Source: Microthyrium microscopicum (Eukaryota). From it: DNA of 64,000 bases. The stretch lies in assembly GCA_010405405.1 (NCBI GenBank), contig MU004231.1:1557784-1621783 (forward strand), in the 5' to 3' direction. This document shows, piece after piece, positions 33,981 to 63,581 of this stretch (position 1 is the first letter of the stretch; each line of letters starts with the position of its first letter). A program made the translations under genes and the position numbers. The notes beneath the pieces were generated by a model. It saw nothing but the letters and a program-made list of their open reading frames with translations, was not told where the DNA came from and ran no database searches.

Positions 33981-33988
33981 GGTCTAGG
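33981..33988. repeat. Left target-site duplication GGTCTAGG
   Basis: The same 8-mer occurs at 63574-63581. Each copy directly abuts a terminal inverted repeat. Confidence 0.85.
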
Positions 33989-34082
33989 TTATCTCAGCCA
34001 ATCAGATCGCGCTAAGTCTCCACTAGCTGCGACGTAGTCACGTCTAAGGACAACTCGGAAAATTTTGCAGCGACTCGCTTCG
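33989..34082 (+). repeat. Left bipartite terminal inverted repeat
   Basis: TTATCTCAG at 33989-33997 and GTCTAAGGACAACTCGGAAAATTTTGCAGCGACTCGCTTCG at 34042-34082. By manual alignment the latter matches the reverse complement of 63477-63517 at 32 of 41 positions. Confidence 0.85.
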
Positions 34083-34549
34083 CAATTTTGTTATTTTTAT
34101 AAATAACTCAACACTATTATAATTATAGCCCCATAGCTTAAATTCGGTACTATTTAATCCCTATAGTTAGAAATCAGCTTTTTAATAAATCTATTTTTAT
34201 TTAGGATTAACGCGAAACCATAATATTTAACTATTCCTCCTAATATACCTAAAGACGTCTAACGTGTTTATATTTTAGTAAGCGCACATTTAACTATTAA
34301 CTACTAAATAACTACTACGGTATATATAATTTTATATATATAGATATACTTAAAACCGTTATCTATTTCAATCTAGTATGTTATTTTTAGGTTATTATTA
34401 TTAGTAGTAGTATATACTTTATTTTTATTCTACTAACTACTATATTATTACCTACCTAGTTAATTATTTCCTTATTATAGGATATATATATAAACTATTA
34501 AAGGGTCGTACTTAATAGATATTAAGAGTCTTCTAGTACTGTATATTAA

Positions 34550-34680
34550 TTAAGGTCTATAAGATATTAGTAAAATCTTTAATAAGCCTAACAAAGTTGT
34601 TACTTCTTATAAGATTTAGATAATGTTAGAAGATCTGTTAAGATATTAGAAGATCTATTAAGATATTAGAAGATCTATAG
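34550..34680 (+). repeat. 20-bp-period tandem array (AGATATTAGAAGATCTATTA)
   Basis: AGATCT at 34631, 34651 and 34671, with degenerate copies upstream. Confidence 0.8.
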
Positions 34681-34742
34681 TAATGTTTAATTGTTTTATC
34701 TATGCCTTACTGCTAATCTATTATACTTATTATATATTCTAG

Positions 34743-37700: not shown

Positions 37701-37950
37701 GTTAATACTACAATTCTTAAGAATTCTAAGCTAAGCAGTCCTATATCTCTACTTACTAGTAGAACTATATATCATAGTACTCTTATAGAGTTACTTATTA
37801 GCTTAACCTAGGCTAGAGCTAGTAAGCAAGTAAGAGACACTTTAAGCACACTACTTAGTTATAAAAGAGCTACCTAGTCGCTAAGTATTACTAGTATTAA
37901 ACAAGTAGAGAAGAGAGCTTAATAGGGAACTATTAGGTTAAGCTATATTT
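34743..37950 (+). pseudogene. RIP-inactivated RecQ-like superfamily II helicase (AcademH helicase); outer limits approximate
   Basis: One frame from 35082 to 36435, after reversing C>T/G>A changes, gives Q-motif KPKEAQIQAL, motif I LLIAKTGFGKSLI (35142-35180), motif II VAIDECHLIHQW (35451-35486), IIIFID, motif V ATTxLGLGxxIPD (~36312) and motif VI LWQRAGRGARG (36402). A C..CCxxC Zn site follows near 36880-36980. Many TAA/TAG stops. Confidence 0.88.
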
Positions 37951-38029
37951 AGAAAACGTATATTAGGCGTTTATTAATTTTTACAAAAAAGGGGAGGCAT
38001 AACACTACCTTTCTTAACTAATCATTGCT

Positions 38030-40190
38030 TTAGCTTAGTATATCTTTTAATACTAGTATATAGAGTTCCATGCTCCTAGCGAGCTACCTACTCTATATCT
38101 AATATTAGTAAAATGCTACCCTCTAATTAGTTAATATTAACTAAGATCTTCTAAGATTAAATTAGATTATCCTATAAATTTAAATATATTATAATAATAC
38201 TAAACTTCTGCTATCTAAGTATATATTTCTAGTAGAGTTAGATAGAGTAGCATATAGCTATAGGCTTACTAATAATAGGACTATATTCTATCATTATGCC
38301 ATTAATAGAAGCTATATATACTAACAACCCTTGCTATATTTTTAGTAAAAGCATAATTATAGAATAAGTTATTATATGCTTCTCTCGTTAAAGCTTTTAG
38401 TTAATATACTATCTACCAGTATAGCTATTCCTTAGTATAATGCCATTACCCTATAATATTTAAAGCGCGTAAGAAGATATATTTACTTCTTCTTCTAAAG
38501 GTCTTACCATAATATTAATAGCCTCCTATCTATTATAGTATATTACTCTTAGTATTATATCTCACTACGTCTAAGTAAAGATTAGATTTCTATATAAGGT
38601 AATAGCTTAAGATAGCAAGCTAAGTATAGTCACTACTAGCTCAACTTAATCCTTATAGTACGTAGGAGGAACTAACCACTACGTAGTAACATTATTAACA
38701 TTAGTACTTATAGAAAGGGAGTTAATAAGCTAAAAGGTAAGAAGTGAATATAGCCTACTATAGTACCTACTTAAACTAGTTAAGACTAGAGCCTAATGAG
38801 TATTTAACTATATCTGCTACTCCAGATCCTCTATATCTCTTTATTATATATTTACTCTACATCTAAGCTTTATAAAGCTTTGCCTTATAGAGATATTTAG
38901 TAAGTTTAATATTAATATTAACGTTATATATTACATTGCTTACACGCCTTTCTATATGTAGTTTTAAGTTCCTTTACTTACTTAATAACCTCTAGTTAAT
39001 GCGTATATAAGGCTATTTAGGTCTATTTCTAAGTTTAACTCTTAGACTAATTCTCACACTTCTCTAGGCCTAATTATTATCTTTATAGTGCTAACATTAA
39101 ATCTCTAGTCACTACCTCTAAGTTTATGGCGCTAGATTCAAAATCGCATTTACTACTTCTTAGTAGCTTAGCTGCCTAGGAAATTAAGTCCTTATTTATA
39201 CGTATTTAGTCTAATATCCCTTACTTATTTGTTAAGCCTCATGCTAAGAGAGTTCCTTAGGTTAATCTATATTTACCTAATAAGCCCTAAGCAGACTATT
39301 ATCTTAAATACTGCCTATTCTAAGCCTATTATAGCTTATCTTTATAGGCTTATAAGTAGCTAGTAAGTAGTCAATATTTAATAGACAATACTATATAAAT
39401 CCTACTAACTTACTTATAGACAAGCAATAACATAGTTGCTAATCTTATAGGTTTAATCCTAGTCTTATAGTACAAGATTTTAGTTACTAAATCTAGATAA
39501 CTTTAGTTTATATAGTAAAGACTATCTTCTAAAATTTATGTTACGTGCCATTAGACTAGGTTAGACTTCTCTTATTCTAAAGCCTAGAAGTAGACTATAT
39601 AGTAGCCATTTATCCTATACCTTATAGTAGTAGCATCGTCATAGCTTTTAGTAAGTTAATCTTATTCTATAATATCTAATTCTAAGATTAATAGTAAGTA
39701 CTCCAGATTTTTATAATACCTCTAGTACTTAAAGAATAGACTTATAGACCTCCTATGTCTTTAAGAGATCTATCCCATTATAAGGCCATTATAATTAGGC
39801 TACCTTATAATATCCACTATCTTACGTTATTAATACTCCTATAGTAAATAGGCTCCTACGAAGATATTCTAGTATATAATTAGCTAACATCTTTATAAAA
39901 CTTTGTACAATTTGCTAGAACTTTATACTTTAGGAAAGAATAATAAGATATTATCCTTAGGGATAGCTTTAATAGGGAACAATAGCTTAAACTAACTAGG
40001 CTTTATTTCTATAAGAGTATAGGTTAGATAGGAGTATTGCTATAATAAAACCTCCCCTTGCCCTATATTTTAAAGCTCTTTAACGATATATACATTAGCT
40101 TTATATACCCTTTACAAACGTTAGCTTTCTATTAGACTTTTAAAGATGCCTTAATATTACTAGCCTTTAGTACATTTAGTGCACCATAAT
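38030..40190 (-). pseudogene. RIP-degraded putative cargo gene, unidentified
   Basis: A frame across ~39840-38900 de-RIPs to protein-like text (RKIVDIVG..SLFFEHW..LEYLPSILELD..GHHIVHFWALE..). No family assigned. Limits approximate. Confidence 0.35.
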
Positions 40191-43100
40191 ACGCTATATA
40201 TTTATACTAACCTATTTAAGCATAATTTTAAGAGTAAAAAAAAGATATATAGCCTAAAGGCCTATATAGCGATTGTTAAGGAATCTAGAACAATCTATTA
40301 ATAAGAGATATGTTTACGCTACAATAAACGCGTAGACCTCTTAGACGTTCTTCCCAACGCTAATAAGTATATTCCTTTACTTTTAAATTATAAATAATAA
40401 TGTTAATAATATTATAGTAATAATAATTAAGAAGAATAGGCAGTAGTCTAGGGCTCGCTACCCTTAAATCTACCTACTCCTTCCTTCTCTCCTCTACTAT
40501 TACTACTACTACTATAGCAATCTTCTCGCGCGGTTATACCTCTAAGCGCAATTTAATAACTATTATTATTTAAGCCTAAGCTCTTAAATAAGCGTAGATA
40601 CCTTACTTTGCCTACTTTCTCACGTTCTTCTAGATGAGAGTCCTTAGCGTTACCTACTAATTTTAATAGCAATTTACCTACCTTATAAGAGGAGGATTTA
40701 CTTGCCTTTAAAAAGGCTCCTCCTACTATAAAAAAAGAGGATTTATATATATAGGATAGAGATAAAGATAATACACTAATCTATAACGATAATTATAACA
40801 ACGATAATAGTTGCAATTTATTTATACCTTCTTAATCTCCTTCTCCTCTTTACTCTTAAGAGAGCTCTACTACTCCTTCTACTAAAACGCCTTAGGGCTC
40901 TTCTCCTCTCTCTCTCTCTTCTCCTTAGTTAGCTAGCGTACTATATTTTAACAGAGTTTTTTCTTACGCTATAAACTTCTTTGCCATACATACTATTACA
41001 CCATCTCCTCTTAACCTACTATCTCTTACCGCCCTAATTTCTCTCGCTAGTACTCATAATAATACCACCTATATAGACTTTAACAAAGAAGTTGAAGCTA
41101 TAAAAGCCTTACTTATAGCTCGCGTAGTAGCTACTATTACAAAGGCCTCCTCTTTAGGCCTAGTTAGGTCTTTTAACTTAAAGGCTATAGCTATTACTAA
41201 GGCCTACAATTTAGTTAAGAAAATCTCTTAGTATTTTCACAAGAGTAGCAATGTTTTAAGTTACCCTCTTATACTAAATTATTTCTAGTTAGTAACTATT
41301 AACTAGTAGAAGGCCATATCGCCTAACTAAAAGCGTAAGGTAACTTATATTAGTCGTATAGAAGAGACAGATGCTAGTAAGACTCTAGCTAATAATAACG
41401 TTTATACGTATTACTAAGCTAGGAGTTATATATACTAAGTATATATTTTAGAGGCGAGAAATGTTCTTAAAAAACCTAGGTTCTAATATTTATAATGCTA
41501 TATAGTAGGGCTACTAAAGGGTAGTTATAGTATAGTTAAACCTATAAATATACTAACTAGGAAGAAGAAGGCGTTAGGAAGATTACTAAAGGAACGTAGG
41601 GAGTTCATAGCAATTTTGCTTATTAGTAGAGGTTTAGCTAATACGTTGACTTAAGTAGTAATAAGTATAGTATAGTAAAGGGTAGCGTTTTAACACACTT
41701 TATACGTAATAATAGTAACTACCTAAGTGCATTTTGTTCTTTATAATTAATAGTTTAATCTAGCTCTATAGGTTTATAGAACTCTACTAAATGACTATAG
41801 ATGTCTAGTATAGCTTAATATTATAAGACACGTCTCAATACGCTTCATCTTTGTGAGGTAAGGTTTAACCTAGCCCTACAAGCTTAGTTTAGCTTCTTTT
41901 AAATAGCTATAGGTTTTAGGGCAGCCCTAATTGTAAGACTCTACATCCTACATAATTATAATAAATAAAACTATTATAATTATATAAACTTAGTTCTTAT
42001 TCTTATTGTAATCATTTAACTATAACTATTAGCATTCAATACTATATATAGATTAATTTAGGAGGCAAAGTAGCTATACTTTATTATAGTTAGGAAAGTC
42101 ATTATATACTTAAAGTTAAGGAATATAATACAATTAAAGTACTAACATAAAGATTTAATAAAGTTAATATAAATTTAATAAAATAAAGTTAGAGAAAGGG
42201 GCTATGAATGCTAATTAATTAGATACACGCTTTTCTATTAGTTAATATCTTCTAATATATCTTAAGAAAATTAACTTAGTATTCTTAACTTTAATTATAT
42301 AGCCCCTACTCTTAATAGTTTAGCTTTAGAAAAGCTACTATTATATCTACTATACATCTCTTATAATGCTAATACTACTATTCTTATTTACTAGACTTTA
42401 GCTAAGTCTTTATATTATAGAGATAGCACTTCTAATACTAATTTAGTCTATCTATTACTAGCTACTTATTATTATCGACTAAAAGACTACTAGATAAGCT
42501 CTACGCACTCACTATATATTAATATTAAATTATAGAATTAGATAAGTAAGTTCCTTAATACCCATCAAGTTATTACTTATATTAAATACTTATATTCATT
42601 ATCTTGCCTTCCCTAAAACCCTTACTCTTACTATACCTTACTTTATATTAGTAGAAGGCAACTTCTTCTTATAGAGATTACTGTCTATTAGAACTATAAT
42701 TTCCTTACCTTTTTCTATATATTTAGTCGCTATAATAGCTAATATTAATACTCTAGCCGTAATTACTAACTATTGTTGCTCTTAGCCATTCTAGTCTATA
42801 TCCTTCTATTAATATTACGAGTTCCTAGCTTCTATATACTCTTTTAATATTACTAATGCCTATACTTACTACTATTACTACAAAAAGATAACTATTTTTG
42901 TAGATATCGTTACTATTTATAGTACATTAATTATAAGGTTTTTTTAAAACATTACGCTAGTAAAGGCTATTACGTTATATAATAATAGTTATATAGTTAT
43001 TCATTACTTTAGCTTAGGTTATATTATAATCTATAGCTACGCTAATTACTCTTACTTATCCTTTGCTAAGCAGGTAGCCATTTAATTAGGTTATTGTTTA

Positions 43101-46100
43101 TAAAACCCTTCTACTTATCTATACCTTTATTACTTCTTTACACTACTCTTTAACTCTTTATTAGAGTTCCTTACTCCCTTTAAGAGTAAGGACTTCTTTA
43201 TCTTTATTTGCTTTAATTACTTACGCTACCTACTATATGCTACAATAGTATCTCGTATTTAGCCTTATATTAAAAGACTATAAGTTCTACTATACTATAT
43301 CTATTCAAGAACTAACCTTATTTACCTAGTACTATTAACGTAGACTCTCGTCTACCAACCTTTAAAGTAAAGATCTCTTATCTTTTATAATTTGCTATTA
43401 CCTAGTGCTTCCTCCTACTACTTACGCAAGGAGAGGCAATTCTATTTTAGTCTTTAGCTATCTATTAGCTTAATAACGAGAAAGCTATAAGTTCTATTCT
43501 ATAATTACATTCTAACGACTTATACTTCTATTTAACTCTATAAATATATACTTACACGTATTTATGCTTTTCTAGCTACCTAAACTACCTAATAAATTAG
43601 TCTTTAGTCTTTATAATTTTAGAAGGGAAGCTATTAACATCATTAGTTTGTAGTTATTATTTAATCACACTACCTAGGTGACAATATAAGACCTACTAAG
43701 AACCTTTCGACCTTTAAATCCTAATATAACTCTAAACTATAATAATAACTTTAAGCACTACACCTCTAATAACTAACCCATAATTCTAACTAAGTTTATT
43801 ATTAGCACTATGCCTAGCCTCTACTTCTAGGTTTACTTCTACGCGCCCCTTATCGTTTAGAGTATTTAACAGTTCTATAAGCAAAACTTCTCCCTTTACG
43901 TAGTATAGTCTAAGTCTTAGACTAAAGCCAATTTCGATTAGCGTAGTTTTATTCTTATAGCACTTATATCATACCATTATGCTATCTTTATATTAGGCTA
44001 GGAGAGAAAGCATTAGGAGACACTTACGCATATGCGATATTAAGCTAACATCAACGCGCGACGTCCTTTTGGTCAGATTAGCCTACCCTTTTAGCTCTCT
44101 ACTATAATAGCTATTTATATTACGCTTAGATTAAAGGATAATAGCTTACTCCCTACTTAGCAACAAGTAACAGTACAAAATCTAGGTAGATAGTTAGTTC
44201 GCTAGGGACCAAACAATAGCTAATATACTTAAATTGATTTTCACTACCCTTTAACCTATTATATCTTCTAAGTCTTAGTTTAAATTATAAACGTAAGTAT
44301 ATATTCTTCTAATTGCGAATCATTTCACTAACCTTTAGTTAGGACCTAGGCTTATAGCGACTCTAAGTAGTTCCTCCCTATTTAAATAGTTTTCTTATAA
44401 GAAGCAGTAACTCATTTCGTGTATGTATAATTAGAAAGTCTAGCATCCTACACCTAATAGCAGACTTATTCTCTTAAATCTTTTAGCAGTCTAGTGCTAA
44501 GATCGCTAATGTCTTTATTAAAGCTATAGTCTTATATAGTCGCAGGAAATACTACATAGCTAATTAAAAATGCACTTAATGCCTATCCTATTGCCTAACG
44601 GTAGTTCCTTATTCTTAGTCCTAAATTGACTAGCTAGTAATAATAGAGTGCGTTAACTTTTCTAGATATTAAAATAATTAATGTGCGTACTATATATAGG
44701 ATAGCGTACATTATAGTTTTAAAGACGTCGTTTCTTATTTACCCGCCTTAAGAGACAAAGAATAGGTTTATAGTACCACGCTACTTAGATTAGTTCTAAT
44801 GATTAATACTAGCCTCCCGCCGCCAATATTTTACGCTCCTTTCCTTAATATAGCTAATCTTCTAACTATACTTAACTTATAAGGAAGTATATAGTCGTAA
44901 TTATTAGACGTAATTACAGTCAGATAATATCCGCTAGCTCTAGCTGCTATTAATATCTAGTAGCTCTAGATTTAGCTTTAGTTTAGTCGCTAAGGGTAAT
45001 ATAAGTAGGAGGTAATAACTAACAAGATCCTATATAGTAGTACTTTAAAGGCTTTACTTACTTGTTAGTTATAGCTAAGGAAGATAACACTAGCTTATAA
45101 ACTTAAATCTATCTAACATTATTCTTTATAATCATGACATTATTAAATATATTAAATCTACGTATTATCGTCTAATATGATTATATAGTTTTGGACTTTA
45201 ACAAAGCGCTAGATCTTACATAATAATATAAAGCAGATAGTAATAAAACTATATATAGTTTATATATAAGAACATACTATAGGATATCTTTATCTAAAAA
45301 AAGCTAAGATTTCTATAATCTATAGCTACTAAACTATAAGAAATATTATTGACTTAATAGAGATAAATAATATATTAACTAGAGTAGAGAATAGGCCTTA
45401 CAAATTATACTCTTTAATTCTACTGTCCAGTTATTGTGAACAATTACTAAAAGTAATTTTAACTAATATAGCTCTTTTGCTAAGAAGTGCTACTTAAAAA
45501 GAAATTCTATATAATTACTACTAATATTAGTTGAATGAGATACCCTCTATAGCAGCAATTCTAAATAGCAAGTAATACTAAGTATAGATTCTATATCATT
45601 GTCCTTAATATTTAAAGGTTAATATAGTATATAAACTATAGCTTCCAATGGAAGGTATTATCGCTTTTATATTTTATGTTATCGCCTCTAATATTTAGTA
45701 ACTAATAAAGAATTTAACGATTAGGCTTATAATAGGCACATTACTAGTAGTATATTTTATAAAATCACTACTAGTATTAAGATATTAATAAGATATTTAG
45801 TAAAGAGACTTTACATAGAAGTACTACTAAATATATATTTTATATAATCGTTACTAACTTCTAGAAATTAATAGAATATTTAGCAAGCAGTCCAAAAGGG
45901 GTAATAAGTTAGCTAGTAATTAAACGCGGTTAGTATTAATATAAGAGATAATAGTTAACTTAATAGTTAATCTTATATACAGCTAGTAGCTAGCTAATAG
46001 TTAAGGGTAGCACCTATTATAGATTTATTATTTTACTAATAGAAATATATAAATCGATGCTATAATAGGCTTCTTACGTATAACATAGTAATACCAATTA

Positions 46101-46970
46101 TCTAGATAATAAAGCTCTTATTTTAGGGTATAAAGTATTCCTAGATTAAATATATAGTAGGTCAAAGGAATATATAGTAGGCTAGAGAGAAGAGATAGTT
46201 TATTTCTATTTAATTAATCTATAAAAGGAGTTAGTAGAGCAATCTAGTCCTTTTATAGCAAAGATATTCTACGTTATAATTATACTAATAGTAAATTAGA
46301 TAAGGAGTTATTTGTAATTAAAGGTATTTCTATAAGATAGTAGTTCTATCTAGTAGGCTTGTCTATTATAGTATAATAGCTAATAGAGACATAGTGTATA
46401 AAATAAGTATAGACATTTTATATTATATAAATACTAGTATAAGAATTAAGAAGTAGTGATTACTAGAATTTAAAAGGTTATAGTAAGAGATCTATACGCT
46501 AATATTAATCTTACTAAATCTAGTTAGATAAATAGAGTTATATAATAATCTTTTAAGATCTTAGATAATGTTATTACTTCTAAGCTAATTATTTACCTTA
46601 GTTCTAATCATATAGTCTATATCTTGTCTAGTTCCTAACCCATTAGTTTTTAATACTATATTAACTTCTAATCCTTACTAGTCTTTGTCCCTATATCTCT
46701 TATCCTCTATCTTATAAACTACCTCTCTTATTTCTTACGCTAATATTTAAATTCTATACCCTTACTAGTACTTCTACTATTCTCTTTACGCCCTTAAAAT
46801 ATCTATCTAATTTAAGTACTACTACCCTCTATACCATCTTTTCCTTAGCTAATAGAAACTACTAACTAGCTCACAATAACTATTATAAGTATATCCAGTA
46901 AGCTAATAACTATAATAGTATATCATTATAAAAATACAGACTCTATACAGCTTTAGGAAGAATTATAGGG

Positions 46971-47330
46971 CGTCTTCTACCCTCTAAAATAAGTACATTA
47001 TACTTCTTATCACCTATCCTACCAACAACGCAATGCTCTTTACGTTATAAAAACATTTATTAAATGTTCTACCCTCTAAAATAAGCGCATTATGCTCCTC
47101 ATTACCTATCCCGCTAATAAAGCAATGCTCTTTACGTTATAAAAACATTCATTATATATCCTACCCTCTAAAAGAAGCGCATCGTACTACTCATTACCTA
47201 TCTTACTAATAAAGCAATATTCTTTACGCTTATAAAATATTTACCATACCTCCTATCCTTTATAATAAGTGCATTATCCTTCTTATTACCTATTCTAATA
47301 ATATAATAGTATTCTTTACGCTAACAGTCA
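46971..47330. repeat. 92-bp tandem repeat, 4 copies
   Basis: CTACCCTCTAAAA-like anchors at 46977, 47069, 47161 and 47253. Confidence 0.9.
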
Positions 47331-47799
47331 TAGCACTCATAAAACTAAAACTATGCAATCTAGAAGGGCTTAGACATTATTAGCGCTAGCTACCTAGAAT
47401 ACTATTAGATATTAACTACATAGTTAGGTGTCTTTATTCCTTTGAGATATGTACATTACAACATAATAGTTAGTAATTCACTAATAGAGTAGGTAAGATA
47501 GTAATAATCGTAAGATATGTCTATATATAGTAAGAAAGGACTAGACTAGCTAAGCGCTTTAAAGCTCTAAAGCCTTAAAGGCTAAAGCTTTAGTAATTAA
47601 GTGAAGCAGTAACCTCTTACGATAGAGCAATTTTAGGCTTAATAGTAGAAGCCTATAGTTATAGTCTACTTAATCTCTCAATCCATTAACTTCTCCACTT
47701 CTTCTTCTTCTTTGTACTCCTATATCTAAAGAATACTTCAAATAACTATAAGACACAATTTCTTTTACTAAAACTTATAATAATAGCTCTAAAGCGTGC

Positions 47800-50450
47800 A
47801 TCTATAAGCTCTAACATTAAGCATGCTATAACTGCTTTAAGCACACCAAAAATACCTAAAAGCTCTACTAAAGACCTAATTACCCTAAACTTAGATAAAT
47901 CCTTATCACTAGAATCTACCTAATAAGCTACTCCAATTAAGTAGTCTATAAATCTAAATTAAGCACGTTTAGTAAGCTATTAAACTACTCTAATCTAATT
48001 ACTATAAATATCTCTACCTTCTACCAATTCCTAATTTCGTAACGAAAAACATCCTCGTTAAGAAATGTTGGTATAATTACTACAAACTCCTTAAAAGCCT
48101 AAGTAGGCCTAGCTAGCCATAGTTACTCCTACTAGTAAAACAGTAAATTAACTCGCTGCGTTATCTATACAAAGCGATAGAAACTAGGCTTCTACTTCTA
48201 TTAAATAATTAGTTAAAAAGGATAAGAGCCATTATAATTATAATCATTTATTAATGCTAGTTTGTAGTAAAAAGGATACTACTACGATAGAAAGAGGTTT
48301 TAAATATAGATTTATTCCTCCTCTAAAAGGAGAAGAAGTATAGCCAACCCTAGATCGTGAAGAATCACTAGTAACTATAATAACTCGCCGCTATAATAAT
48401 GTAATACTTCTATATAGCGCCTATAAAGGAAATTCACAGATTTAGTAGAAGAGGTACTATATAGCTAGTAGCGAAGTAGAAATAGCAAAATAGTAAAAAG
48501 AGGCACGCTAAAAACGCTAAGTAAGTAACTTAAAACCTATTGTAGAGGAGGCTACTTATAGTTAAGCATACGTACGTTAAAGCACCTAAGGCGATACAAC
48601 TAATATAGGCTCCATAACTCTATCACGAAATAACATAAAGACTACAACATTACCTAAAAGTCTAATAACTTCTCTAACTTAAGTTATAGTCAAGAAGCCA
48701 TTACTATCCTCTAAATCATCCCTAAGCAAGAAGTCAACACTAAAAGTAGACCTTTAGGTCCTAATTCTACGGTTCTTAGAGAAGTAATATATATTTAGTA
48801 ACATAAAAGTGTCTATCTTTAATAACCGCGCCAAAACTACTAATATCTAAGTTATATAACTACTCTTCTACCTACTCTAAAAATAGATCCCTAATGATAC
48901 TAATCTAATAATACTTTAAGTACTCCTTAAATACTAACCAGTACAAGGTCTATAATAGCATAAACATTCTACTCCTTAGCTTATAAATATTCTAAAGACA
49001 CTACCTTCACTATATGCCGCAATAGTATATTGCCTTACTATAAGTTAGGTTAAATACTCTTATTAGCGTTACTCTAAAATCCAAAGTCTTAGTCTATCCC
49101 AAACAAAGAATAGTAAAGAACCAATATTAGCATATACTACCTATATAATTATAAAAGTTAAGAACAAAAGCATTCTATTTAAGAAAGCCTATATAAATTA
49201 TATTATAGAAGGATATTATAAGACTTACTTATTTTATAAGAATAATAAGCAATTAGCACCTAAGCCACGTCCTAATGTTATAAAGACTAGAAAGGCTAAG
49301 GAAGACTTTAGCGAATTCACATCTTAGCAAATTGCTTGCCTTATTGCTAGTAAGGAAAAATAGAAGTTATAGAAGACTAAACAATATAAGATAGTAATTA
49401 AAGGAGTAGAAACTTAAGATATAGCTATTCAAAAGGGTTTAGTTTAACTAACAACCCTAATAATAATTTCCTACAAGATATGTATTGTTTACCTAAAGAT
49501 AGATAAATAATAATTCTTATTCAATCTTTTAAGACTAGACTTAGAGAATTTCTATCGTCTTTAATACTACGTCGCCACTTACTAGTAGGCTTACATAGCT
49601 ATAAGCCATTACCAAATTCTACAACTCTATAAGTACTCTTAGAGTGCAAGTAATAATGTGCTTCTTAACTATAAACGGGATAGGTAATCTACGACTAACT
49701 ATGCTACGCTTATGAATTTAGATTAGGTAATCCCTATTTTTAGCTTATCTTGTCTTTATCTATAAAGCCTAATTAGCATAGCGGCATATAAGCTATATTA
49801 GTAGATTATATCCTAGTTAAACATTCCTTATTTTAGCTAACTATATCTAGTAGCGATAGAGCTAAGCTATAGATTATGTCTCAAATAACGTAATAAATAT
49901 AAGCTATCTAATGATATAGTAAAGTCCCTTACTAGCTTACTATTAGAATGTCTTAAACTGCTACTAAGTAGTAATGCTTTTAGAAGTTAACGTTACAAAG
50001 TTAAAAGGGATTTCCAAAATCTCTTTCCTTTAGAATAGGATGACAGTGCGTTGTACATCTAAATACTAGCTAGTCTACATTAGTCTATAAGTTGAACTAT
50101 TTTATAAATCTACTCTAATCATAATTACTTAGAGCTCTATACTAGAAACTAGCAGTACTATTACTCTCACTAGCATATTAATAGCTTGCTTTAGCTTAAT
50201 AAGTAACCTAACATTTAAAGATATACTCTAGAGCTTATTATTAACCTTACCTTATAATTATTATATTTATAACGAAAGAGAAGATGATTATAAGTACCTA
50301 TATATTATCTATAGAATGAAACTAGATCATAAAGGCGAGAGGTGTAGCAATAAATTATAAAGCTAGTAGTATTTAAGTAAGGCTAGATTTAAGGTTCTAC
50401 TCTAAATAGGCAGACTAAGATACGCTTAACTACTTTTAGATAATATGGGA
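47800..50450 (+). pseudogene. RIP-degraded putative cargo gene(s) with Cys pairs
   Basis: De-RIPped fragments such as 'TRCVVCAKR' (~48150) and 'YLCIICGMKLDHKGERC' (~50295) suggest Zn-binding motifs. Identity and limits unknown. Confidence 0.3.
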
Positions 50451-51004
50451 CGTTCTTAAATAATATTTTAAGTTATATAAAGATATTAGTCTAATCAAAT
50501 AGCTTATAGCGAGACTTAATTATTAGCGTATAATACCTAACATTGCATCGTAACTTTAAAGTCTTTTCAACTTTATACTAATGCATCTAACTTTAACATT
50601 TATACCTTCTATTACAATACAATTTATCTTAATAACTATAGTTTAAAACTAGGCATAATTAGCGTTACTTATATCTACAGCTTATATATAACTTCCTTAT
50701 CGTCTATACTGCGATCTCTCTAGCCATTAGTATCCCTATATTCTTTACCTTATAAAGCTAGCTAATATTAATATCTTCTACGTCTAAAGTAACAACTAAT
50801 TTATATCGCAACGTATACTTCCACTAATTATAAGATAGCACTAATATTTCCTTAAAAGCTAAAAGCAAAATCGTAAAGCTAATTTCGTTATATAGCAGTG
50901 CGCTAGACTTAAGCACATAGCATAAACCTTTCTAAAGCCTTATACGTACTCAAAAGTCTTATTATAATATTAGCTATTAAGCAGCATCCTTAACTTAGTA
51001 TAAG

Positions 51005-51965
51005 CATTCTCTTTCTTAAAGTCTACCCGCTAGCTTTATTCTAAGAGTATAATTCGCACGCTAAATACTATATATCCCTTCCTAAAGACTATAGCTAGCT
51101 TCATTCTAAGAGCATAATTTATACGCTAAATACCATATATCCCTCCCTAAAGACTATCGCTAGCCTTATTTTAAGAATATAATTCGCTACGCTGAACTCT
51201 ATTATAATCCTCCCTAAAGACTATTACTAAAAATCCGCTTGCTAGCTTTATCTTAAGCGCATAATTTATAGTATTAAACTCTATCATATCCCTCCCTAAA
51301 GACTATTACTAAAAATCCGCTTACTAGCTTCATCCTAAGCGCACAATTTGTAGCGCTAAACTCTATTATATCCCTCCCTAAAGACTATCACCAAAAATCT
51401 GTTTGCTAGCTTTATTCTAAGCGCACGATTTGTAACATTAAACTCTATTATATCCCTCCCTAAAGACTATCACTAAAAATCCGCTTGCCAGCTTTATTTT
51501 AAGCGTACGATTTATAGCGTTAAATACTATTATATTTCTTCCCAAAGACTATCACTAAAAATCCGCTTGCTAGCTTTATTCTAAGCGTACGATTTGTATA
51601 TTAAACACTATTATAACCCTCCCTAAAGACTGCTACTAAAAGTCCACTCGCTAGCCTTCTTCTAATAGCATTATTTATACAATATAAGAATATATCTTAC
51701 TCCCTAAAGACTATCGCTAAAAGTCTACTCGCTAGCCTTCTTCTAATAGCATTATTTATATAATCTAAGACTATATCTTCCTCCTAAAGACTACCGCCAA
51801 AAGTCTACTTGTTAGCCTTCTTCTAATAGCATTATTTATATAATCTAAGACTACATCTTCCTTCTAAAGACTACCGCCAAAAGTCTACTTGCTAGCCTTC
51901 TTCTAACAGCATTATATACACAATATAAGACTATATCTTCCTCCCAAACACTGTTACCAAAACCT
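51005..51965. repeat. Tandem array of ~13 units, period 65-82 bp
   Basis: CCTAAAGACT-like anchors at 51015, 51081, 51146, 51213, 51295, 51377, 51459, 51541, 51622, 51703, 51783, 51863 and 51943. Confidence 0.92.
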
Positions 51966-52169
51966 CCTTAATATCTAATAGTAAACTAACATATTAACTA
52001 TAAATATATACTCCCTAGCGTAGTAAAATTATCTTAAACGAAGCTCTTATTATAGGCTATTAACTAGTATTTTAGTAACTAATAATACGTATATTTCCTA
52101 TTTCTTAGTACCTACTATAAGTTGTTGCTAACTTATTAACTATTAAGAAACACTACATATTATATACTA

Positions 52170-52500
52170 CAACTTATACTCGTTTTTCCTTTAGACTACT
52201 ACTAAATATCTTCCTATTCTTAAATATTAAGAGATACGGCATATTATCTATCCTTACTTGCGCTTATTTTTCTTAGTACTGCCGCTAAATATTTCCTCAT
52301 TATAGACTATTAAGAGATATAGTATACCGCCTATCCTTACTCATGCTCGTTTTTCTTAGTACCGCTACTAAATACTTCCTTATTATAGATTATTAAGAGA
52401 TACGATACACTACCTATTCTTACTTGCGCTCGTTTTTTATAGTACTGCTGCTAAATACTTTCTTATTATAGTCCATTAAGAAATGCGGTAGAGTACCTAA
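52170..52500. repeat. 83-bp tandem repeat, 4 copies
   Basis: ATTAAGA(G/A)AT anchors at 52226, 52309, 52392 and 52475. Confidence 0.9.
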
Positions 52501-54849
52501 CGACAATATAACTCTCTTTTTCTTTAGCGCTATATTTAAAGGTACATCTTTATTAAAGTCTAAGTAATATAGTAAGTAGCCTAGTAGTACGTATTATTTA
52601 TTTCTTTACAAATATCCTTATCCCCTAGAGTCATAATAGCAGATTACGTAGTTAATTATATTGCTATTTACTAGCCCCTTTATTAGCTATATTTCTTTCT
52701 ATTCTAAAAACTTATATTCTAAATTACTTATATAGTTAAATACTTATATACTAAATTTGTCTCTATCTTTTCTTTATATTAAACTATAATACAGAATTCT
52801 TAAAAGCTATATCTTCTTATTTAAGTATTCTTTAACGTAAGATTATAGTACTATCTTATAAAACTAGTAAGCTCTAGTTCTCTAGGAATAGATATCAATG
52901 TTATAATATTTAAGGTTTAGAGTTTAATATAAGTATCATCCTTCTAATATGTTAAATATAGTCTTTCTATATACTAACTCTATTATAATCTAGAGACTTA
53001 GAAATATTAAGTCTCTATACTAAACTAGTACTACTTATAACTTAATAGCTAAAGACAAGATCTTTATAGTTAAATTTAATTACTATAGTATGCCTATTAA
53101 AGCCCTATTTAATCTTATATACTATAAATTAAGCAATAGCTAATAGTACGCTTATCCTTTACTCCTTAATAATTCTAGATATAGTAAAGTAAAGTATATA
53201 TACTATGGCGCATCCCTTAACTCACTAACAATAATTAAAGATACATTTATTATTATTAGTTTATAAGAAGAAGTTCTATAATCTATTATAGAATTAGTTT
53301 TTAGACGCTAGCCCTTTTAGCGCAGCTATTCTTAAAACTATAGCTAATAGTATTACGACGTAGCAAGTACTTTATATATAGATAGAGTCTTAAGATTATA
53401 GCGTCTAGAACGTAATACTATTTATAGTACCTACAAGTAGATTAAGGTATAGAGATATCCTTAGGATGCTCTATAAGTCCTTAGTTCTAATACTAAAATA
53501 ATATAACTAATAGAGACCGCCCCTAGTATTCACGAGATAAAATAATAGGTAGCTTACGCTAATATTCTTACAAGCTTGTTAAATCTAATCGCTATACTAA
53601 TACCTAGTTAAATCCCTAATAAGCTTATAGCCTCTATTAATAACCTTTTAAGCTCGTTAATAGATCTTGTTCCAAGACCTAGCAGAAGCTTTTATAAGAT
53701 AACTATACTACGATTAAGTTCTAAGGGGTTTCTTACAGCACTTAAAGGAGGTACTAAAGCCTAAATACTACTTAAATAACTTATTTAGTAAATACGCGTG
53801 CTTTATGCTAGATTATTATAATAAGTTAATATACTACCCTCTAGCACGTCTTTAAACTTATTATTATAGGTTAAAGAGGGTATAAAGCTTAATATTAAGG
53901 CTAAAAGATATAAGGACGACTTGTCTTATAATATAGAAGTATTTAGTAAAGTATATTAGTTATTTATTAACTCTTCTGCTAATATTCTATATAGACGTAT
54001 ATTAAAGAAGAAGTAGAAGAAGTTAAATATTAAAAAGACTAAGCAGTTAAATACATACGATTTATTAGCTTCCCTCCATTAGATATAGAGTTACTCTAAG
54101 CTTTAATATCACTTCTAATAGTTTAGCCTTTTAAACCTCAAAAGTTTAAATATGTTATCTACTACTCTATTAAGAAATATCTTAGTCTCTACTTAGATAT
54201 ATCTATACCTCTATTAAAAGCAATAGCAGCATATAAACTAAATAAAGTTACATCTACTTAATATAATCTAGCAGACTCTAGTCCTAACGCCTTAATTTAC
54301 TATAACAACCAAGGTCTAAATAAGAGACTTAGAGCTACTTAGATATAGTATACTATATTTAGATAAGGCGCTAATAATTAGAGTAGTAGAGATTAGTACA
54401 TCTAACTTACGTTAAGAAGTTAGAAAAGTACAGTCTAAGAAAGTTATTACTATTTAATTATAAATCTTTTATATTCTAACGAGATATTAGAAGATATTTA
54501 AAAATATAGACTAATAGAATGCCTTTAAACTTAAGAGTTACTATATAAAATAACCTTTATAGATCGCTCTAAACGTTACTTCTAATATTAAAGTTTTAAC
54601 CTCTCTCTATAAGAGAAAGACACCAATTCTATATCACCTCTAGCTCTACTATAACTTATCTAACTATAGGCTTTAAGTAGTTAAAAGTCTTAATATAAGC
54701 AGTACCTCCTTAACTAACTATCTTAGTTTATGACTAACAACATACTAAGCCTTTATTCCTAATAGTATAGCAACGGCCAATATATTCTCACTAACTAGCA
54801 ACTAGTACAAACTTACTATATTTATCCCTTTTAATAGCTTTACAACGCA

Positions 54850-55630
54850 CTTTGACGTAATAGCTATCTATTAAGGCTTTACTAGTAATACAACATTTAA
54901 CTACTAGAGCCTTAATAAACAGACCTAAAACAACTATAGCTATAGTGCTTTAACGTAATAGCCATCTATTAAGGCTTTATTAGCAATACAACGTTTAACC
55001 ATTAGAGTAAGAGTAATAAGCTTAGAATAAACTATAGCTATAGTACTTCAATACGATAGCTATCTATTAAGGCTTTGTTAGCGACGCAACGTCTAACCAC
55101 TAGAGTAAGAGTAATAAGCTTAGAACAAACTATTACTATTATGCTAGCCGCCTAGCCAACTATAATAACTCTACTAGCGACATAGCGAATTAACTACTAG
55201 AAGGAGGATAATAGGCTTAGAATAAATTAGTACTATTATACTAGCCACTTAGCCAACTATAGTAGCTTCACTAGCTATATAACCTTCCACCACTAGGGCA
55301 AGAATAATAGACTTAGAGCAAACTATTCCTAGCCTAGCTAAGTATACTAACTTCACAAGCTTACAACCTTTCACTACTAAAGTAAGAATAATAAGCTTAG
55401 GGCAAACCATTCCTAGCCTAGCTAAGTACACTAACTTTATAAGCTTATAACCTTCTACTACTAGAGCAAGATTAATAAGCTTAGGGCAAACCATTCCTAG
55501 CTTAGCTAAGTATACTAACTTTATAAGCTTATAACCTTCTACTACTAGAGTAAGAATAATAGGCTTAGGGCAAACTATTCTAGCCTAGCCAAGTATACTA
55601 ACTTTGTAAGCTACGCAATGTTTAACTACT
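54850..55630. repeat. Compound tandem array: 98-bp units followed by 84-bp units
   Basis: TCTATTAAGGCTTT at 54867, 54965 and 55063. (A/G)GCAAAC at 55317, 55401, 55485 and 55569. Both unit types share an ACTAGAGTAAGA.TAATAAGCTTAG core. Confidence 0.9.
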
Positions 55631-57599
55631 AAAGCTAGTAAATCAAATATTAGCCTTAATTATCCTAATAAGCTACGCTAGTTGTATAATAATTAATCAC
55701 TAGAATAAAATCAATAGGCTAGAAGTACAGCAAACCTAAACATTATAACGACTAAGTAATATATAAGCATTTATAACTCGTTTAGCTTACGTAAATAAGC
55801 CTAAAACTAAAACCTAAGGAAGAACATACGGCTATAAGATATATATCTACATCCAGTACTAGCTCAATAATATATTCTTTTCTAGTATAATGATAAGTTA
55901 GGTATAAATTAAGGAATAGCTCTAACGCTTTAACTATAAGTTAGGATCTCTCTTATTACTTTATTATTCTCTACTAACTCTAAGCCTTAAATAGCTATAT
56001 ACAAAATAATTATAATAGAATCTCTAATATTATACGTACTAAATTATCTACTAGCTTATACCTACTTATACTTATTCTAGTTATTATTAAGTAGTCCTAC
56101 CTTAGTCAAGTTAATATTCTATAGTAAACTCTATAAGAAAGTAAGTCAAAATCTCTATATTGCGTACTACTAAGGTAAAGAACTATTCCTAGTATTCTAT
56201 TAGCTAAGATCTTCTAACAAGTTCTAACATTAGATTACATTATATTAGACAAAAATAAAACTAACCTTACTACTAACCTAACTAACCAGTAGTCTACTAA
56301 TAACAACAATCTATAATTACTAACAACCTATAATTACAATTCCTATTCATTCTAGACGCTAGGAAACAGCTCCTTAAAGAGCATATTTCCTACTAGGTAA
56401 GACAAACCTAAATTACATACAAAGTCTCTATTATATAATCTTGCTAAGTACTTACTAAAATCCTAAATACCTATTACGTATTTACATTATAACTTATATT
56501 TATTCTATACTTCTCTATAACCTCTATCGCTCTAGCATTAGTTCTTTCTTTATCTATATCTTATACGATATATTAAAACCATCTATAAAAAAGATAGTCA
56601 CTATCTAACATTAGCTCTATTATCTTTTCGCCTAACGTAAAATATACGTTATATAATAATATAGAAGTAGAGTATAGGACATACTTAAACTAGGACTTTA
56701 GCTTTAATTAACGTAATTCGATTAGAGGATAACAACAATATACGTAGGTAGAAAGTAATAGTAGATACTAAAGTAATAGAAGAAGTAAAATATAAGTAAT
56801 ATTAAGAAGCATATAGAATAAGTATAAAAAAACGATAGGATTATACCTACTACTTTAGACAATCTATACTAATTATAGTTTTATAGGGGGTAGATTAACG
56901 TCCTATCTAGGTAGGCTACTACCGTACTTCTTTCTATATAGGGTAAGCTAAAGTGCTTAGCAGTTCTATTATTAATACTCGTACTAGATACGTTGCCTCT
57001 AAGCTTATAGATATATCTTCTACCTCTATCTCTTCTTTAGGAAGTACTTCTAAATAGGCTAAGATAAGGTAGAAGACGCATCTAAGGCTAAAGGTATTCT
57101 TATATAGACTAACCCTCCTAAAGAGACCTATAGAGGTAGATAATATATCTATGTTAGGAGGATTATATACATGTCTTAAGTATAGATCCTTACTACGGCC
57201 CTATCCTTCCTTAACCTCGTCTAAACTATAACTACTATAAGGAGCAAGCAGCAAAGAACATTCTTTATAAATAGCAGTGCAAGAGAATACATAAACTACT
57301 ATAATTACCTCTTCCTTTCCATAGTAAGCATATACTGCCCAATTCCCTAGTAATTATAACAATTAAAGCAGCTAGCAATACTATAACCTTATAACTTACA
57401 AATATCTTATTAGATGTAGAGGAAACTATAGTTATTAAACCCTCCCTAATTCTATACTTATATTACATTACAAAGCGGCATATAAGCTATGGCTACTAGA
57501 TCTAGCATCACTAGAGTTTAAATCTACACAGACATTTACTAGTTAGTTTCCTTCCCTATTTATTAATTAACATAAATAGTTATATTAATAGCCTAGATT

Positions 57600-57808
57600 T
57601 AGACCTACGTACGCTCTTTCTTGCTAATTAATTATAAATATATAAATAGCATGCTTATTAAACTCTACTTTAGTAAAGTTCTCTCTATCTCCTATTATAA
57701 TTATTCATATTAACACTTATAATTAGACCTAAGTATAGTCTTTCTTGCTAATCAACGTAAATATATATAAATAGCATACTTATTAACCTTTACTTTAGTA
57801 AAGTTCTA
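57600..57808. repeat. ~85-bp direct repeat, two copies with starts 124 bp apart
   Basis: AGACCTA..TCTTTCTTGCTAAT..ATATATAAATAGCAT.CTTATTAA..TACTTTAGTAAAGTTCT at 57601 and 57725. Confidence 0.8.
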
Positions 57809-59940
57809 GAGTTATTACCTTACTATATAGGCAATCTTTAAACAAGTGCCTCCATTAGTATATATGCCTTCTAAGTCTATCTATCACAAGAAATAACGAA
57901 CCTTAAAACTACTCATTAGTTATTTAGAGAGAGTAATACCTAAGAGAGCTAGCTAGCATCTTACTTTAATAACGACCTTAGTAAGAAGTAAATATCCAAC
58001 GTCTAATAGGCCTACTAGATCTACTCCGCTATTTACCTATATGCTACCATAGCTCCCTCCCTTAGCAACATATATATATATATAAACGTTACTAATAACT
58101 ATTTAGTAATTAGAGAGAACTATTATTAAGTTAGGAGCAATACGTAGGGCAATTAGTAGTTATAGTCTAGGTTACACTAATACATAGTACTTAAACATTA
58201 GGAAGGTAAAGATCTTACTAAAAGAAAAGGATAAGCAAGCTAGCAAGTACGTTATTTAGTTATAACTTTCTATTTACTTTACTCACATTACTCTTCTTAC
58301 CTATCCTTTTTCCTTCTTAGATAATGCTTAGAACACTCTTAAACTTCACTATATTTACTTCTCTAATAGCACTCTTCTTACTACTTCTAACTGCTATAGC
58401 TTTCTGCTAAATGTTTATATAGCAAGAAGTTAAAAGAATTAACACAGAGGCTAGCAAAACAACTTCAACAATCAATAGAACTAAAGACACTTAATTATGC
58501 TCTTTACCTACTCTACGATGAAGTTAAGATATAGCTAATTAACCCTATAGAACTAGCATTAATAGTTACTATAGCGCGCTAGCCGCGCTATTTACCCACC
58601 CTATAATAAAGCTAATATATAGCTAATTAACTCAATAGAACTAGCATTACTAACTAGCGTAGCATACTAGCTACGCTATCTATAAATTAACGACTTTAAT
58701 ACCTAAGTAATTAATCTTACCAAGTTAGCATTAATAGCTAGCATAAGACACAATATATAGCGCTATTAATACCCACTACGCAATTACTTAGTAGATTATA
58801 TAGAAAGAGCAATAGAAGCACTTCAAAATAATTTAATAAACAAAGAGAGTAATTTAATTACGCTTACAATATTACTAGAGCAAATAAAGCAAATCTACCC
58901 GTTATAAGTCCTAGAGGTCCTAAATATAGTAATAGGCATATACTTCTCAATAGGATTACTAAACTCTAAAAGCTTACTAAACTATTAAGAGTATAATATA
59001 TTATTACTATTTATAGACATATACTACTTCTTCTTCCCCTTCTTTTTCCTTTAAAAACTTTCTAAGACGTTTACTACCGCCTAGTAGTAGTTATGACTAC
59101 TACTAGACTAAATAGTTAATAAACCTCCTACTACACCCTACTAACCTATACTAACATCAACATCCTTATTACCTTAAATGCTATAGCTAACACTAGAGCA
59201 GAAAGTTAAGAACTACCTCCTTAGAATTAGCCTACGCCTCTATTAATTTCCTCGCTACCTTAGACATATATATAGCATATCTTACTATACTATAACCCTA
59301 TTAAACAATATACTAACTTCTTCCTAAGATAAGGCTATATTAAAGCTAAAGAAGGCTGCTACTCTATCTACGGTAGAAGAATCCTAATTACTAACTATTC
59401 TTAGATAAAACTTAAAAGATCATAGAACTAATACGAGATAAAATACGATTATCTATCATTCTATATATTACCTTACGAAGAATCCTATATTATAATAAGT
59501 AAGGCTAAGACGTTAATTTAAACTATCAATATAGATAACATTAGTTTACTTAGCGGCGTAAAATTACCCTTATCTCTATACTTTAAGCTAACCTAGAATG
59601 AGCCTAAATTAACAAACAGACATAACTAATACTTAAATAGGAAATTATAGTGACTCTAAACTCTTCTACATTTAATATATAACGAAGGTCAATATACTAT
59701 CCCATATTTAGGACGCGCTTAGAGTTATCTATTAAATCAATATTACAAAAATAAGAAAGTATTCGTTAGCAAGGCTAAATTAAATAGCGCAATCCTATTA
59801 GCTAACATTATCTTACATTATCTAATATTTTCTAACATTAATTAGATTATATCACAATAGATAAGATCCTATTACATCCTGCTATAATTTTAACCTTATA
59901 CGAATTACGACTAAAGCAGAAACCTTAAATAAATATATAT

Positions 59941-62900: not shown

Positions 62901-63357
62901 CTCTTCTATAACGTCCTTTAAAAGCGTACGGCAAGTAGTAACATTAGCATATAGGTTACTATCAAGAACAATATTACTATAATTATCTTTTTAGCTAGCC
63001 TACGATAAAAGAAACGATTTTATAGTTATCTTCTAATCTTAAATACATTTTAGTATTATAGTAAGCTTTTGTTTAGCCAAATTTAGGCTCTACCGTAGTG
63101 TTATCATCGCCGCTAGTTATGAACAACCTAATAGTTCAGCATTATTAGGCTTATATTGAATCCTACTTAAGGTATTCCCAAGATCTATTATGGTTATCAT
63201 ATTGCTAAAGATATATAAATATAGACTCTTTATTATTATAGAGATAAATCTACCTTTACTACTATTATTACCAAAGAAAGGTACGTCTAGCCTATATAGA
63301 AATTGGGTTATCTCTATAAGACCCTCCTCTACAACGCGTACTTCTAATAGGAGGCAT
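59941..63357 (-). pseudogene. RIP-inactivated Academ-type (DUF6589-like) DDE transposase, intron 62272-62456; start tentative
   Basis: De-RIPped exon 1 end: NNYLAATLGVYLLGLGAKRQVIDLLAALGVCTGYKT. Exon 2 stays in one frame from 62271 to 59941: YDNMNF (62220), ITTA..CPSLP.EGLMQDMYDPT, GDQLS (61248), SGWFH..MN (61149), AFRHGDIGLL..YFYGTGQNNYGDEML, LVNWEG..FFKPMDLGLEHLN, NSTHD, SPDI, acidic tail. Intron has a GTATGT donor and a CTAAC..AG acceptor. Confidence 0.88.
62321..62426 (-). repeat. 20-bp-period tandem array inside the transposase intron
   Basis: AGATCT at 62327, 62347, 62367, 62387 and 62407, plus a half unit at 62417. Confidence 0.88.
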
Positions 63358-63476
63358 AATTTATAGAATTAATAGAGAAAAAGACAGTAATTGTAATGAT
63401 AGTAGAATTATTAAAAATATATATATATTAGTAGCGAGGACACAGTTGTAATAATATAGGCATTTACTAACAACCA

Positions 63477-63573
63477 CGAAGCGCGTCGTACTAAAAAGGT
63501 CCGAGTTGGCCTTAGACCCTCCTGCGGAGGGAGCCCGCGGACAGGCAGGGTTAGGGTCTGAGAACTGAGATAA
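63477..63573 (-). repeat. Right bipartite terminal inverted repeat
   Basis: CGAAGCGCGTCGTACTAAAAAGGTCCGAGTTGGCCTTAGAC at 63477-63517 and CTGAGATAA at 63565-63573. Confidence 0.85.
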
Positions 63574-63581
63574 GGTCTAGG
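63574..63581. repeat. Right target-site duplication GGTCTAGG
   Basis: Identical to 33981-33988 and immediately follows CTGAGATAA. Confidence 0.85.

Follow-up and report, generated by a model that had tools for sequence, protein, structure and literature searches.

What fills the 22 kb between two decayed enzyme genes in the genome of Microthyrium microscopicum? The question is posed by a 64,000-nucleotide stretch of contig MU004231.1 (assembly GCA_010405405.1, positions 1,557,784 to 1,621,783; hereafter the window), in which a preliminary description had set positions 37950–59940 apart as passenger sequence that holds several decayed protein-coding stretches and looks like cargo rather than nested transposable elements. 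We conclude that this interval is probably the inner part of one dead, very large DNA transposon of the cut-and-paste type rather than a series of genes captured from the host. One gene in the interval, which encodes a DUF3716-like cysteine-rich protein, was identified through an intact counterpart; most of the remaining DNA carries no coding signal.

A RIP-mutated element with inverted ends and a target-site duplication

From ~34.0 to 63.5 kb, the window bears the signature of repeat-induced point mutation (RIP) and is heavily mutated. The fraction of G and C (GC) was 0.24–0.33 between ~34.1 and 63.46 kb, compared with 0.43–0.51 over 1–34 kb. In 2-kb bins from position 34001, the TpA/ApT index was 1.41–1.94 and the (CpA+TpG)/(ApC+GpT) index was 0.28–0.70, whereas the corresponding values in the left half of the window were 0.54–0.79 and 1.21–1.55. 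The left half contains long open reading frames (ORFs), but none of the 47 ORFs of at least 100 amino acids in the window lies beyond position 33,945. Base composition, both RIP indices, and the loss of ORFs thus bear out the premise that the interval consists of RIP-decayed DNA.

We place the element at 33989–63573 because it has inverted ends, because a perfect 8-bp target-site duplication (TSD) flanks it, and because contigs of a public sequencing run depart from the window at its left end (Table 1). When the edges were aligned by a transition-tolerant and by a strict method, the outermost 9 nt of the terminal inverted repeats (TIRs) were identical, as were 56 of the first 90 alignment columns, with two well-kept blocks. 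Three contigs of public sequencing run X2 diverge from the window just before 33989, where their flanks are unlike that of the window (agreement 0.53); copies of the element at other sites would give such departures. At both ends, the terminal ~110 bp (33989–34100 and 63465–63573) have normal GC and many CpA dinucleotides, and everything inside them is heavily RIP-mutated. The switch in composition, at ~34.10 and ~63.46 kb, falls within the element and not at its ends. The target site is rich in GTCTAG/CTAG motifs on both sides (33965–33988 and 63574–63603) and partly palindromic, which may reflect a target preference.

Relics of two enzyme genes stand at opposite ends of the element and face inward, with the 22-kb interval between them. 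The right relic was read through with stops as X and matched Pfam DUF6589 (PF20231) at ~60442–61296 on the minus strand with 57.9 bits (E 9.5e-16), above the family cut-off of 27 bits. A word search with 59944–62232 (minus strand) returned one intact protein, P0005 (BT63DRAFT_440007; 1062 residues; 63% identity over 100% of the query), which is annotated at its source as a hypothetical DUF6589 protein of M. microscopicum and itself matches DUF6589 with 209.7 bits (E 8e-62). By tblastn, P0005 aligned in pieces at 63357–63274, 63206–62457, and 62265–59944. For the left relic, all 12 matches among PDB sequences were to the WRN RecQ helicase, although they were weak (E 0.067–0.17; query residues 131–313). 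Helicase motifs I and II can be read by eye in the translation of 34662–37919 (plus strand), and Pfam recovered no family at E ≤ 1 from the read-through translation in pieces of 300–400 residues. The DUF6589 protein would be the transposase of the element, and the helicase would assist it. Twenty-nucleotide repeats containing AGATCT near both ends may be sub-terminal binding sites for this transposase.

Starships are Pezizomycotina elements of tens of kilobases that carry extra genes, are often degraded by RIP, and are led by a DUF3435 tyrosine recombinase. The island could be a Starship-like or otherwise new giant cargo mobilizer, in which the helicase and DUF6589 genes would be mere passengers; its size of ~30 kb and its extra gene would suit this explanation. 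However, a six-frame Pfam search of 33001–64000, a weak test on such DNA, matched neither DUF3435 nor another tyrosine recombinase. Moreover, the element terminates in inverted repeats flanked by a short target duplication, and the two enzyme genes lie at both ends facing inward, as expected if they serve the element. We regard a Starship-like mobilizer as very improbable.

An unmutated family version and the DUF3716-like gene

Contigs of public sequencing runs, of which X1 and X2 represent one sample and X5 carries another label, were compared with positions 33501–53500. Colinear contigs covered 34009–37674, 34955–41483 (a single contig of 9550 nt), 41910–44339, 44680–46880, 47319–49458, and 48310–50446, and the spacing between neighboring pieces with given record coordinates had equal length in contig and window. 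Most pieces differed from the window at 17–24% of bases. Of the 3099 differing places in X1, 2581 pair a window A with a contig G or a window T with a contig C, as do 2140 of 2208 in X5, and loose contig ends at drop-outs still consist of window sequence with only such transitions. The contigs are the unmutated parent state and the window is its RIP derivative, with the interior included up to at least 50.4 kb. As the unmutated version keeps both order and lengths, at least 34.0–50.4 kb is DNA of the element family and not a set of local insertions. Our reading is that the entire interior moved together with the element. At 429 further places in X1 the direction of change is reversed, and therefore additional RIP-mutated copies exist. 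An RNA origin of X5 is a guess only, and neither the parts that X5 leaves uncovered (41505–42171 and 49509–50175) nor contig depths were used as evidence. Run X6, labeled as a third organism, has low-depth contigs of 248–350 nt on the island at 35250–35516 and other short pieces; one of these, 267 nt long, matches the RIP-mutated window exactly, possibly through cross-contamination or because it comes from a very close relative.

The gene in the interior was identified by its intact counterpart. A word search with 48497–49798 (plus strand) returned P0007 (BT63DRAFT_258548), a hypothetical protein of 554 residues from M. microscopicum (E 2.7e-120), and tblastn aligned residues 1–554 of P0007 without gaps at 65.9% identity, which shows the gene to be unspliced and full length. 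C>T or G>A changes alone suffice to explain 187 of the 189 codons that differ from P0007, including 44 that are now stop codons. The genes for P0005 and P0007 probably lie on the same contig, since the longest contig listed for either protein measures 2,506,003 nt. Decayed coding sequence with cysteine pairs had been proposed for 47.8–50.4 kb (plus strand), and this proposal holds for 47783–49444. Of the nine cysteines in the C-terminal region of P0007, three belong to CxxC pairs, and most of these nine now read as tyrosine in the window copy, so that the cysteine pairs noted earlier were a correct reconstruction of the sequence before RIP. A count of C..C motifs (16 in six frames) was uninformative, since RIP turns cysteine into tyrosine.

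P0007 has a disordered N-terminus and an N-terminal half rich in serine, threonine, proline, and glutamine. Residues 421–485 align with positions 8–59 of the 59-position Pfam profile DUF3716 (PF12511) with 18.8 bits (E 0.0016), below the curated cut-off of 22 bits, and we therefore call the protein DUF3716-like. The three nearest P0007 clusters in the ESM Atlas are DUF3716 clusters (scores 0.93, 0.90, and 0.90; 19 of 30 matches), and a fold search related P0007 to a DUF3716 cluster with a template-modeling score of 0.50; such scores serve as leads only. A single-sequence AlphaFold2 model of P0007 had a mean predicted local distance difference test score of 43.5, with confidence only for a helix at residues 196–265 and the cysteine domain left unmodeled. 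The RIP-mutated gene copy gave no Pfam match even at E ≤ 10, P0007 gave no match to PDB sequences at E ≤ 10, and P0001 showed no likeness to P0007 (best E 0.22). Pattern searches for P0005 in metagenome contigs and for P0007 in viral contigs returned six matches each, none of which was confirmed.

This gene looks more like an accessory gene of the element than a captured host gene, because the DUF3716 family also rides in another fungal DNA transposon, REP9, which is discussed below. By analogy, its product might be an accessory factor that binds DNA. The Fusarium graminearum DUF3716 protein PSC58 has been described as orthologous to Neurospora NCU05718 (PMC10776026), and NCU05718, which has no annotated DNA-binding domain, is reported to bind double-stranded TTAGGG repeats directly (PMC4650311). 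This orthology with a telomere-repeat binder, together with the presence of the DUF3716 family in two unrelated fungal DNA transposons, offers a testable idea for a domain without known function. A broader proposal, which we think improbable, is that DUF3716-type cysteine-cluster proteins are general accessory factors acquired separately by unrelated fungal elements (Academ-like here, IS3EU-like in REP9, and perhaps long-terminal-repeat (LTR) retrotransposons), and that the protein encoded here would bind the element's own 65–98-bp arrays or sub-terminal repeats. Were it true, an element of 30 kb could benefit from a DNA-binding module that it encodes itself, whether in folding, in excision, or in escape from silencing.

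Coding signal, tandem arrays, and nested elements in the interior

Three coding statistics (stops per frame, period-3 composition, and a codon model) were each calibrated on the known genes of the element. Stop rates after RIP offered small contrast, with ~5–7.5% in true genes and 10–14% in other frames. Median period-3 chi2 values were 16.1 (helicase gene) and 17.9 (transposase gene), whereas the interior had a median of 6.2, as expected under the null with 6 degrees of freedom. Interior peaks occurred at 40351–41550 (26–52), 42451–43200 (19–22), 47701–48750 (17–21), and in two array regions. The codon model was trained on RIP-mutated genes and applied in windows of 250 codons against 20 simulated interiors. 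When one gene at a time was left out of training, the true frame outranked the other five in 7 of 7 segments. In the interior the model gave a clear signal only at 40050–41774 on the plus strand (0.137 bits per codon) and in the region of the P0007 gene, with marginal values at 52952–54151 (0.020) and 54977–56101 (0.039, on arrays). Four low-stop interior segments scored 8 or more, with ~1.07 expected by chance for the whole island; one of these falls on an array, one coincides with the codon-model candidate, and the codon model backs neither of the other two. About three quarters of the interior has no coding signal. In terms of length, the confirmed gene occupies 1,662 bp (7.6%) of the 21,991-bp interval, the candidate ORF 1,725 bp (7.8%), tandem arrays 2,408 bp (10.9%), and featureless DNA ~16.2 kb (~74%).

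These results reduce the several decayed coding stretches of the preliminary description to one confirmed, one plausible, and three unsupported among five. First, on the minus strand at 38.0–40.2 kb, frames have 8.3–14.7 stops per 100 codons (windows starting at 38101–39601) and chi2 values of 2–17, mostly below 10, with no codon-model or Pfam match. Second, the 139 codons with one stop at 56.9–57.3 kb (minus strand) score 9.44, which is within the null (mean maximum 8.86, 95th percentile 11.65), and this stretch has no periodicity, codon-model match, or Pfam match. Third, 59178–59900 (plus strand), which adjoins the transposase stop at 59944 on its downstream side, has 21 stops in 241 codons and chi2 values of 2–9, again without codon-model or Pfam support.

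The plausible stretch, 40.4–41.7 kb on the plus strand, is the strongest remaining candidate by all three statistics, with the highest periodicity of the island and its codon-model score in its favor, but no relative of it was found. The corresponding ORF has 26 stops in 430 codons, a rate similar to that of true genes. A word search with 40410–41700 (plus strand) returned none of 4716 candidates, phmmer found no match to 40410–43550 (plus strand) among 1.84 billion representatives, and a purine/pyrimidine-degenerate pattern of 41106–41168 had no match in metagenome contigs. As both intact family genes that we queried are present in the word-search collection, an annotated counterpart of 40.4–41.7 kb would probably have been found. 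The 40.05–41.77 kb stretch is therefore a candidate: if it is a gene at all, it is an orphan ORF that has escaped annotation. Inside it, a pyrimidine-rich tract with a run of CT dinucleotides (40860–40930) could equally be a CT box of the promoter type, a reading that would weaken the coding interpretation of that part.

How firmly can further genes be discounted? The interior could be multi-gene cargo, with three to six more real genes masked by RIP damage to ~18% of bases. The confirmed gene is itself weak by these measures, because only 48941–49540 was flagged by a model trained without it and its period-3 chi2 is just 7–21. In addition, many 900-nt windows contain a frame with no more than 7.5% stops (for example 38401, 42301–42601, 56401–57001, and 58801–59701), the marginal codon-model values at 52952–54151 and 54977–56101 could mark genes, and contigs of X5, which is RNA by guess, cover much of 34.0–53.5 kb. 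Against these points, the median periodicity of the interior equals the null, only one of the four low-stop segments coincides with a codon-model candidate, about one low-stop segment is expected by chance over the whole island, and 40410–43550 (plus strand) has no annotated relative although both queried intact genes are in the protein collection. On balance, a multi-gene cargo seems unlikely, although it deserves to be taken seriously.

Several observations weigh against our preferred reading of the interval as the largely non-coding interior of one transposon. The confirmed gene has 7.5% stops and modest periodicity, and more genes may therefore hide among the many windows with ~7% stops. 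Pfam searches of read-through translations detect just one of the three known genes of the element, since the helicase goes undetected at E ≤ 1 and the DUF3716-like copy even at E ≤ 10, and the protein comparisons covered only a few interior frames. The colinearity comparison spans 33501–53500, and 53.5–59.9 kb lies outside it. The sub-threshold DUF3716 score and the poorly modeled cysteine domain of P0007 count in the same direction, as do the length of the TSD and the putative status of the Academ assignment, which are taken up in the final section.

Tandem arrays of 65–98-bp units belong to five mutually unrelated families, as judged in purine/pyrimidine space, where RIP differences vanish. 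Their unit lengths are mostly not multiples of three, and the arrays are probably non-coding. Searches for nested elements were negative. Pfam found no family at E ≤ 0.01 in six-frame X read-through of 37501–60502 in pieces of 4000 residues, and no reverse transcriptase, RNase H, integrase (rve), or other transposase domain appeared in six frames, a search of low sensitivity here. A CNNM match (E 0.15) from a Pfam search of smaller pieces (E ≤ 10, five candidates) was taken as chance. In purine/pyrimidine space with k = 26, the interior has no long-range direct or inverted repeat that could be an LTR-like or TIR-like pair, and neither Rfam at its gathering threshold nor ARAGORN found an RNA family or tRNA in 33.5–64 kb. 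Given the low sensitivity of Pfam, these nulls rule out a recent complete LTR element but not old fragments. The preliminary description, in which no reverse transcriptase, integrase, second transposase, or DUF3435 motif had been recognized by eye, agrees with the six-frame Pfam search and with the lack of an LTR-like pair.

Another explanation invokes old fragments: non-autonomous or incomplete transposons, together with satellites, would have nested into the master copy before it multiplied and left the interior a mosaic. The DUF3716-like gene would be a remnant of one of them, such as an LTR retrotransposon that carried an additional gene in antisense orientation. The ~16 kb of unexplained origin and the five unrelated arrays could be accommodated in this way, and BcGypsy1 provides a published case of an additional antisense gene, brtn (PMC8365987). 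Nevertheless, the absence of retroelement and transposase domains and of repeat pairs speaks against a mosaic, the minus-strand frames adjoining the DUF3716-like gene have no coding signal, no retroelement body lies beside the gene, and the gene is unspliced and full length. We judge a mosaic origin to be a long shot.

Our preferred reading is thus of cargo in a restricted sense. The TIRs, TSD, and colinearity place the interval within one element in which no nested transposon was found, as the preliminary reading of cargo rather than nested elements had implied; the named gene, however, looks like an accessory gene and not a captured host gene, ~11% of the interval is arrays, and roughly three quarters is without coding signal. 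In the arrangement we propose, a RecQ-like helicase gene on the left and a DUF6589-family transposase gene on the right would read inward from the ends, and the interior would consist of the 554-residue DUF3716-like gene, the ORF-like stretch at 40.05–41.77 kb, five array families (2.4 kb), and ~16 kb without coding signal. RIP later destroyed the copy, and the 44 stop codons in the DUF3716-like gene alone are attributable to this process. To our knowledge, cut-and-paste DNA transposons of 30 kb are rare, and the contents of such elements matter for the question of how much DNA a DDE-type enzyme together with a helicase is able to move. In practical terms, real genes can escape profile searches where DNA is RIP-mutated, and they are recovered by a stop-tolerant search for an intact paralogue.

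Outside the element, a minus-strand glycogen synthase gene (Pfam PF05693; E 5.4e-11 and 3.3e-07 in two frames, 33002–33293) starts ~700 bp to the left of the insertion, and the element therefore lies in or near the upstream region of that gene. A contig of X5 skips 33557–33627, with CT..AC ends, which resembles a spliced intron in the 5' region of the glycogen synthase gene. The longest intact ORF of the window (24013–27066, minus strand, 1017 amino acids) is in the unmutated half.

Table 1. Coordinates of the element and its features, in window positions
Feature	Position	Strand	Evidence or remark
Left TSD, GGTCTAGG	33981–33988		Identical 8-mer directly outside both termini
One RIP-killed giant DNA transposon copy	33989–63573 (29,585 bp)		TIR alignment; flanks of X2 contigs; GC and RIP shifts near both ends
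Left TIR, imperfect	33989–34100	+	Alignment to right end
Sub-terminal 20-nt AGATCT repeats, left	34626–34678		~640 bp in from the terminus, upstream of the frame of the helicase
RecQ-like helicase gene relic, left bookend	34662–37919	+	One open-ish frame; weak PDB matches; motifs by eye; outside the 22-kb interval
Candidate second interior gene	40050–41774	+	Orphan, unconfirmed; chi2 up to 52; codon model 0.137 versus null maximum 0.053 bits per codon
Tandem array, 92-bp unit	46977–47303		3.6 copies; Tandem Repeats Finder (TRF) and repeat finder
RIP-killed gene for 554-residue DUF3716-like Cys-rich protein	47783–49444	+	Word search, tblastn, codon differences
Compound tandem array, 65-, 82-, and 80-bp units	51029–51952		Units mutually related; z 9.6–12.1 in purine/pyrimidine space
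Tandem array, 83-bp unit	52172–52499		TRF and repeat finder
Two adjoining related arrays, 98- and 84-bp units	54849–55612		z 6.6
Tandem array, 88-bp unit	58499–58679		2.1 copies; TRF and repeat finder
DUF6589 transposase gene relic, right bookend	59944–63357	-	Three exons; Pfam and tblastn with P0005
Sub-terminal 20-nt AGATCT repeats, right	62315–62420		Within the gap (62266–62456) between transposase exons 2 and 3
Right TIR	63465–63573	-	Alignment to left end
Right TSD, GGTCTAGG	63574–63581		Perfect 8-bp direct repeat

Comparison with known transposable elements

The element shares with Starships a length of tens of kilobases, extra genes, an ascomycete host, and degradation by RIP; it differs in its DUF6589 gene, in the 8-bp duplication at its inverted ends, and in that the six-frame Pfam search, weak on such DNA, found no DUF3435 captain. 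AcademH was reportedly described by Kojima in 2020 (Mob DNA 11:15) as a helicase-encoding lineage of Academ DNA transposons. The likeness to AcademH lies in the architecture of a fungal DNA transposon with TIRs, a TSD, a putative transposase, and a putative superfamily-2 helicase. Two articles describe AcademH as a fungal DNA transposon that has inverted ends and encodes a transposase and a superfamily-2 helicase of the DEAD/Helicase_C type (PMC10045372, PMC10799480), with a TSD of 9 or 10 bp (PMC10045372). By comparison, the element in the window is 29.6 kb long, with ~22 kb between its enzyme genes, a third, DUF3716-like gene, and five array families, and its TSD is perfect over 8 bp; extension to 9 or 10 bp requires a mismatch and puts the inverted ends out of register. 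In the partial texts searched, no statement links Pfam DUF6589 to the Academ transposase, and no report places a DUF3716 gene in an Academ-type element. An Academ-type identity of the DUF6589 gene is putative, and for this reason and because the TSD is 8 bp, we do not file the element as a member of AcademH.

Two other fungal elements offer precedents for the interior gene. According to the available excerpts of PMC8232023, REP9 of Zymoseptoria tritici is a 7.9-kb IS3EU-like class II transposon that is multi-copy and affected by RIP in relatives, and REP9-1 and REP9-2 carry DUF3716. Like the element described here, it is of the cut-and-paste type, with TIRs and TSDs and with DUF3716 genes beside a transposase, as far as those excerpts go. 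Its transposase is of the integrase (rve/IS3EU) type, however, and not DUF6589, and it has no helicase. Its TIRs are 43 bp, its TSD is 6 bp, its length is 7.9 kb with no arrays reported in the same excerpts, and REP9-1 has 193 residues, compared with 554 in the DUF3716-like protein here. According to PMC8365987, brtn is an additional antisense gene of Boty-like (BcGypsy1) retrotransposons (Zhao et al., 2011); on that account it, too, is an extra gene that stands beside a fungal transposable element's own enzymes, but it belongs to an LTR retrotransposon and is antisense to pol, whereas the gene here stands alone in a DNA transposon. The element in the window is a known kind in an unusually large form, with a mostly non-coding middle and one gene of the accessory type.

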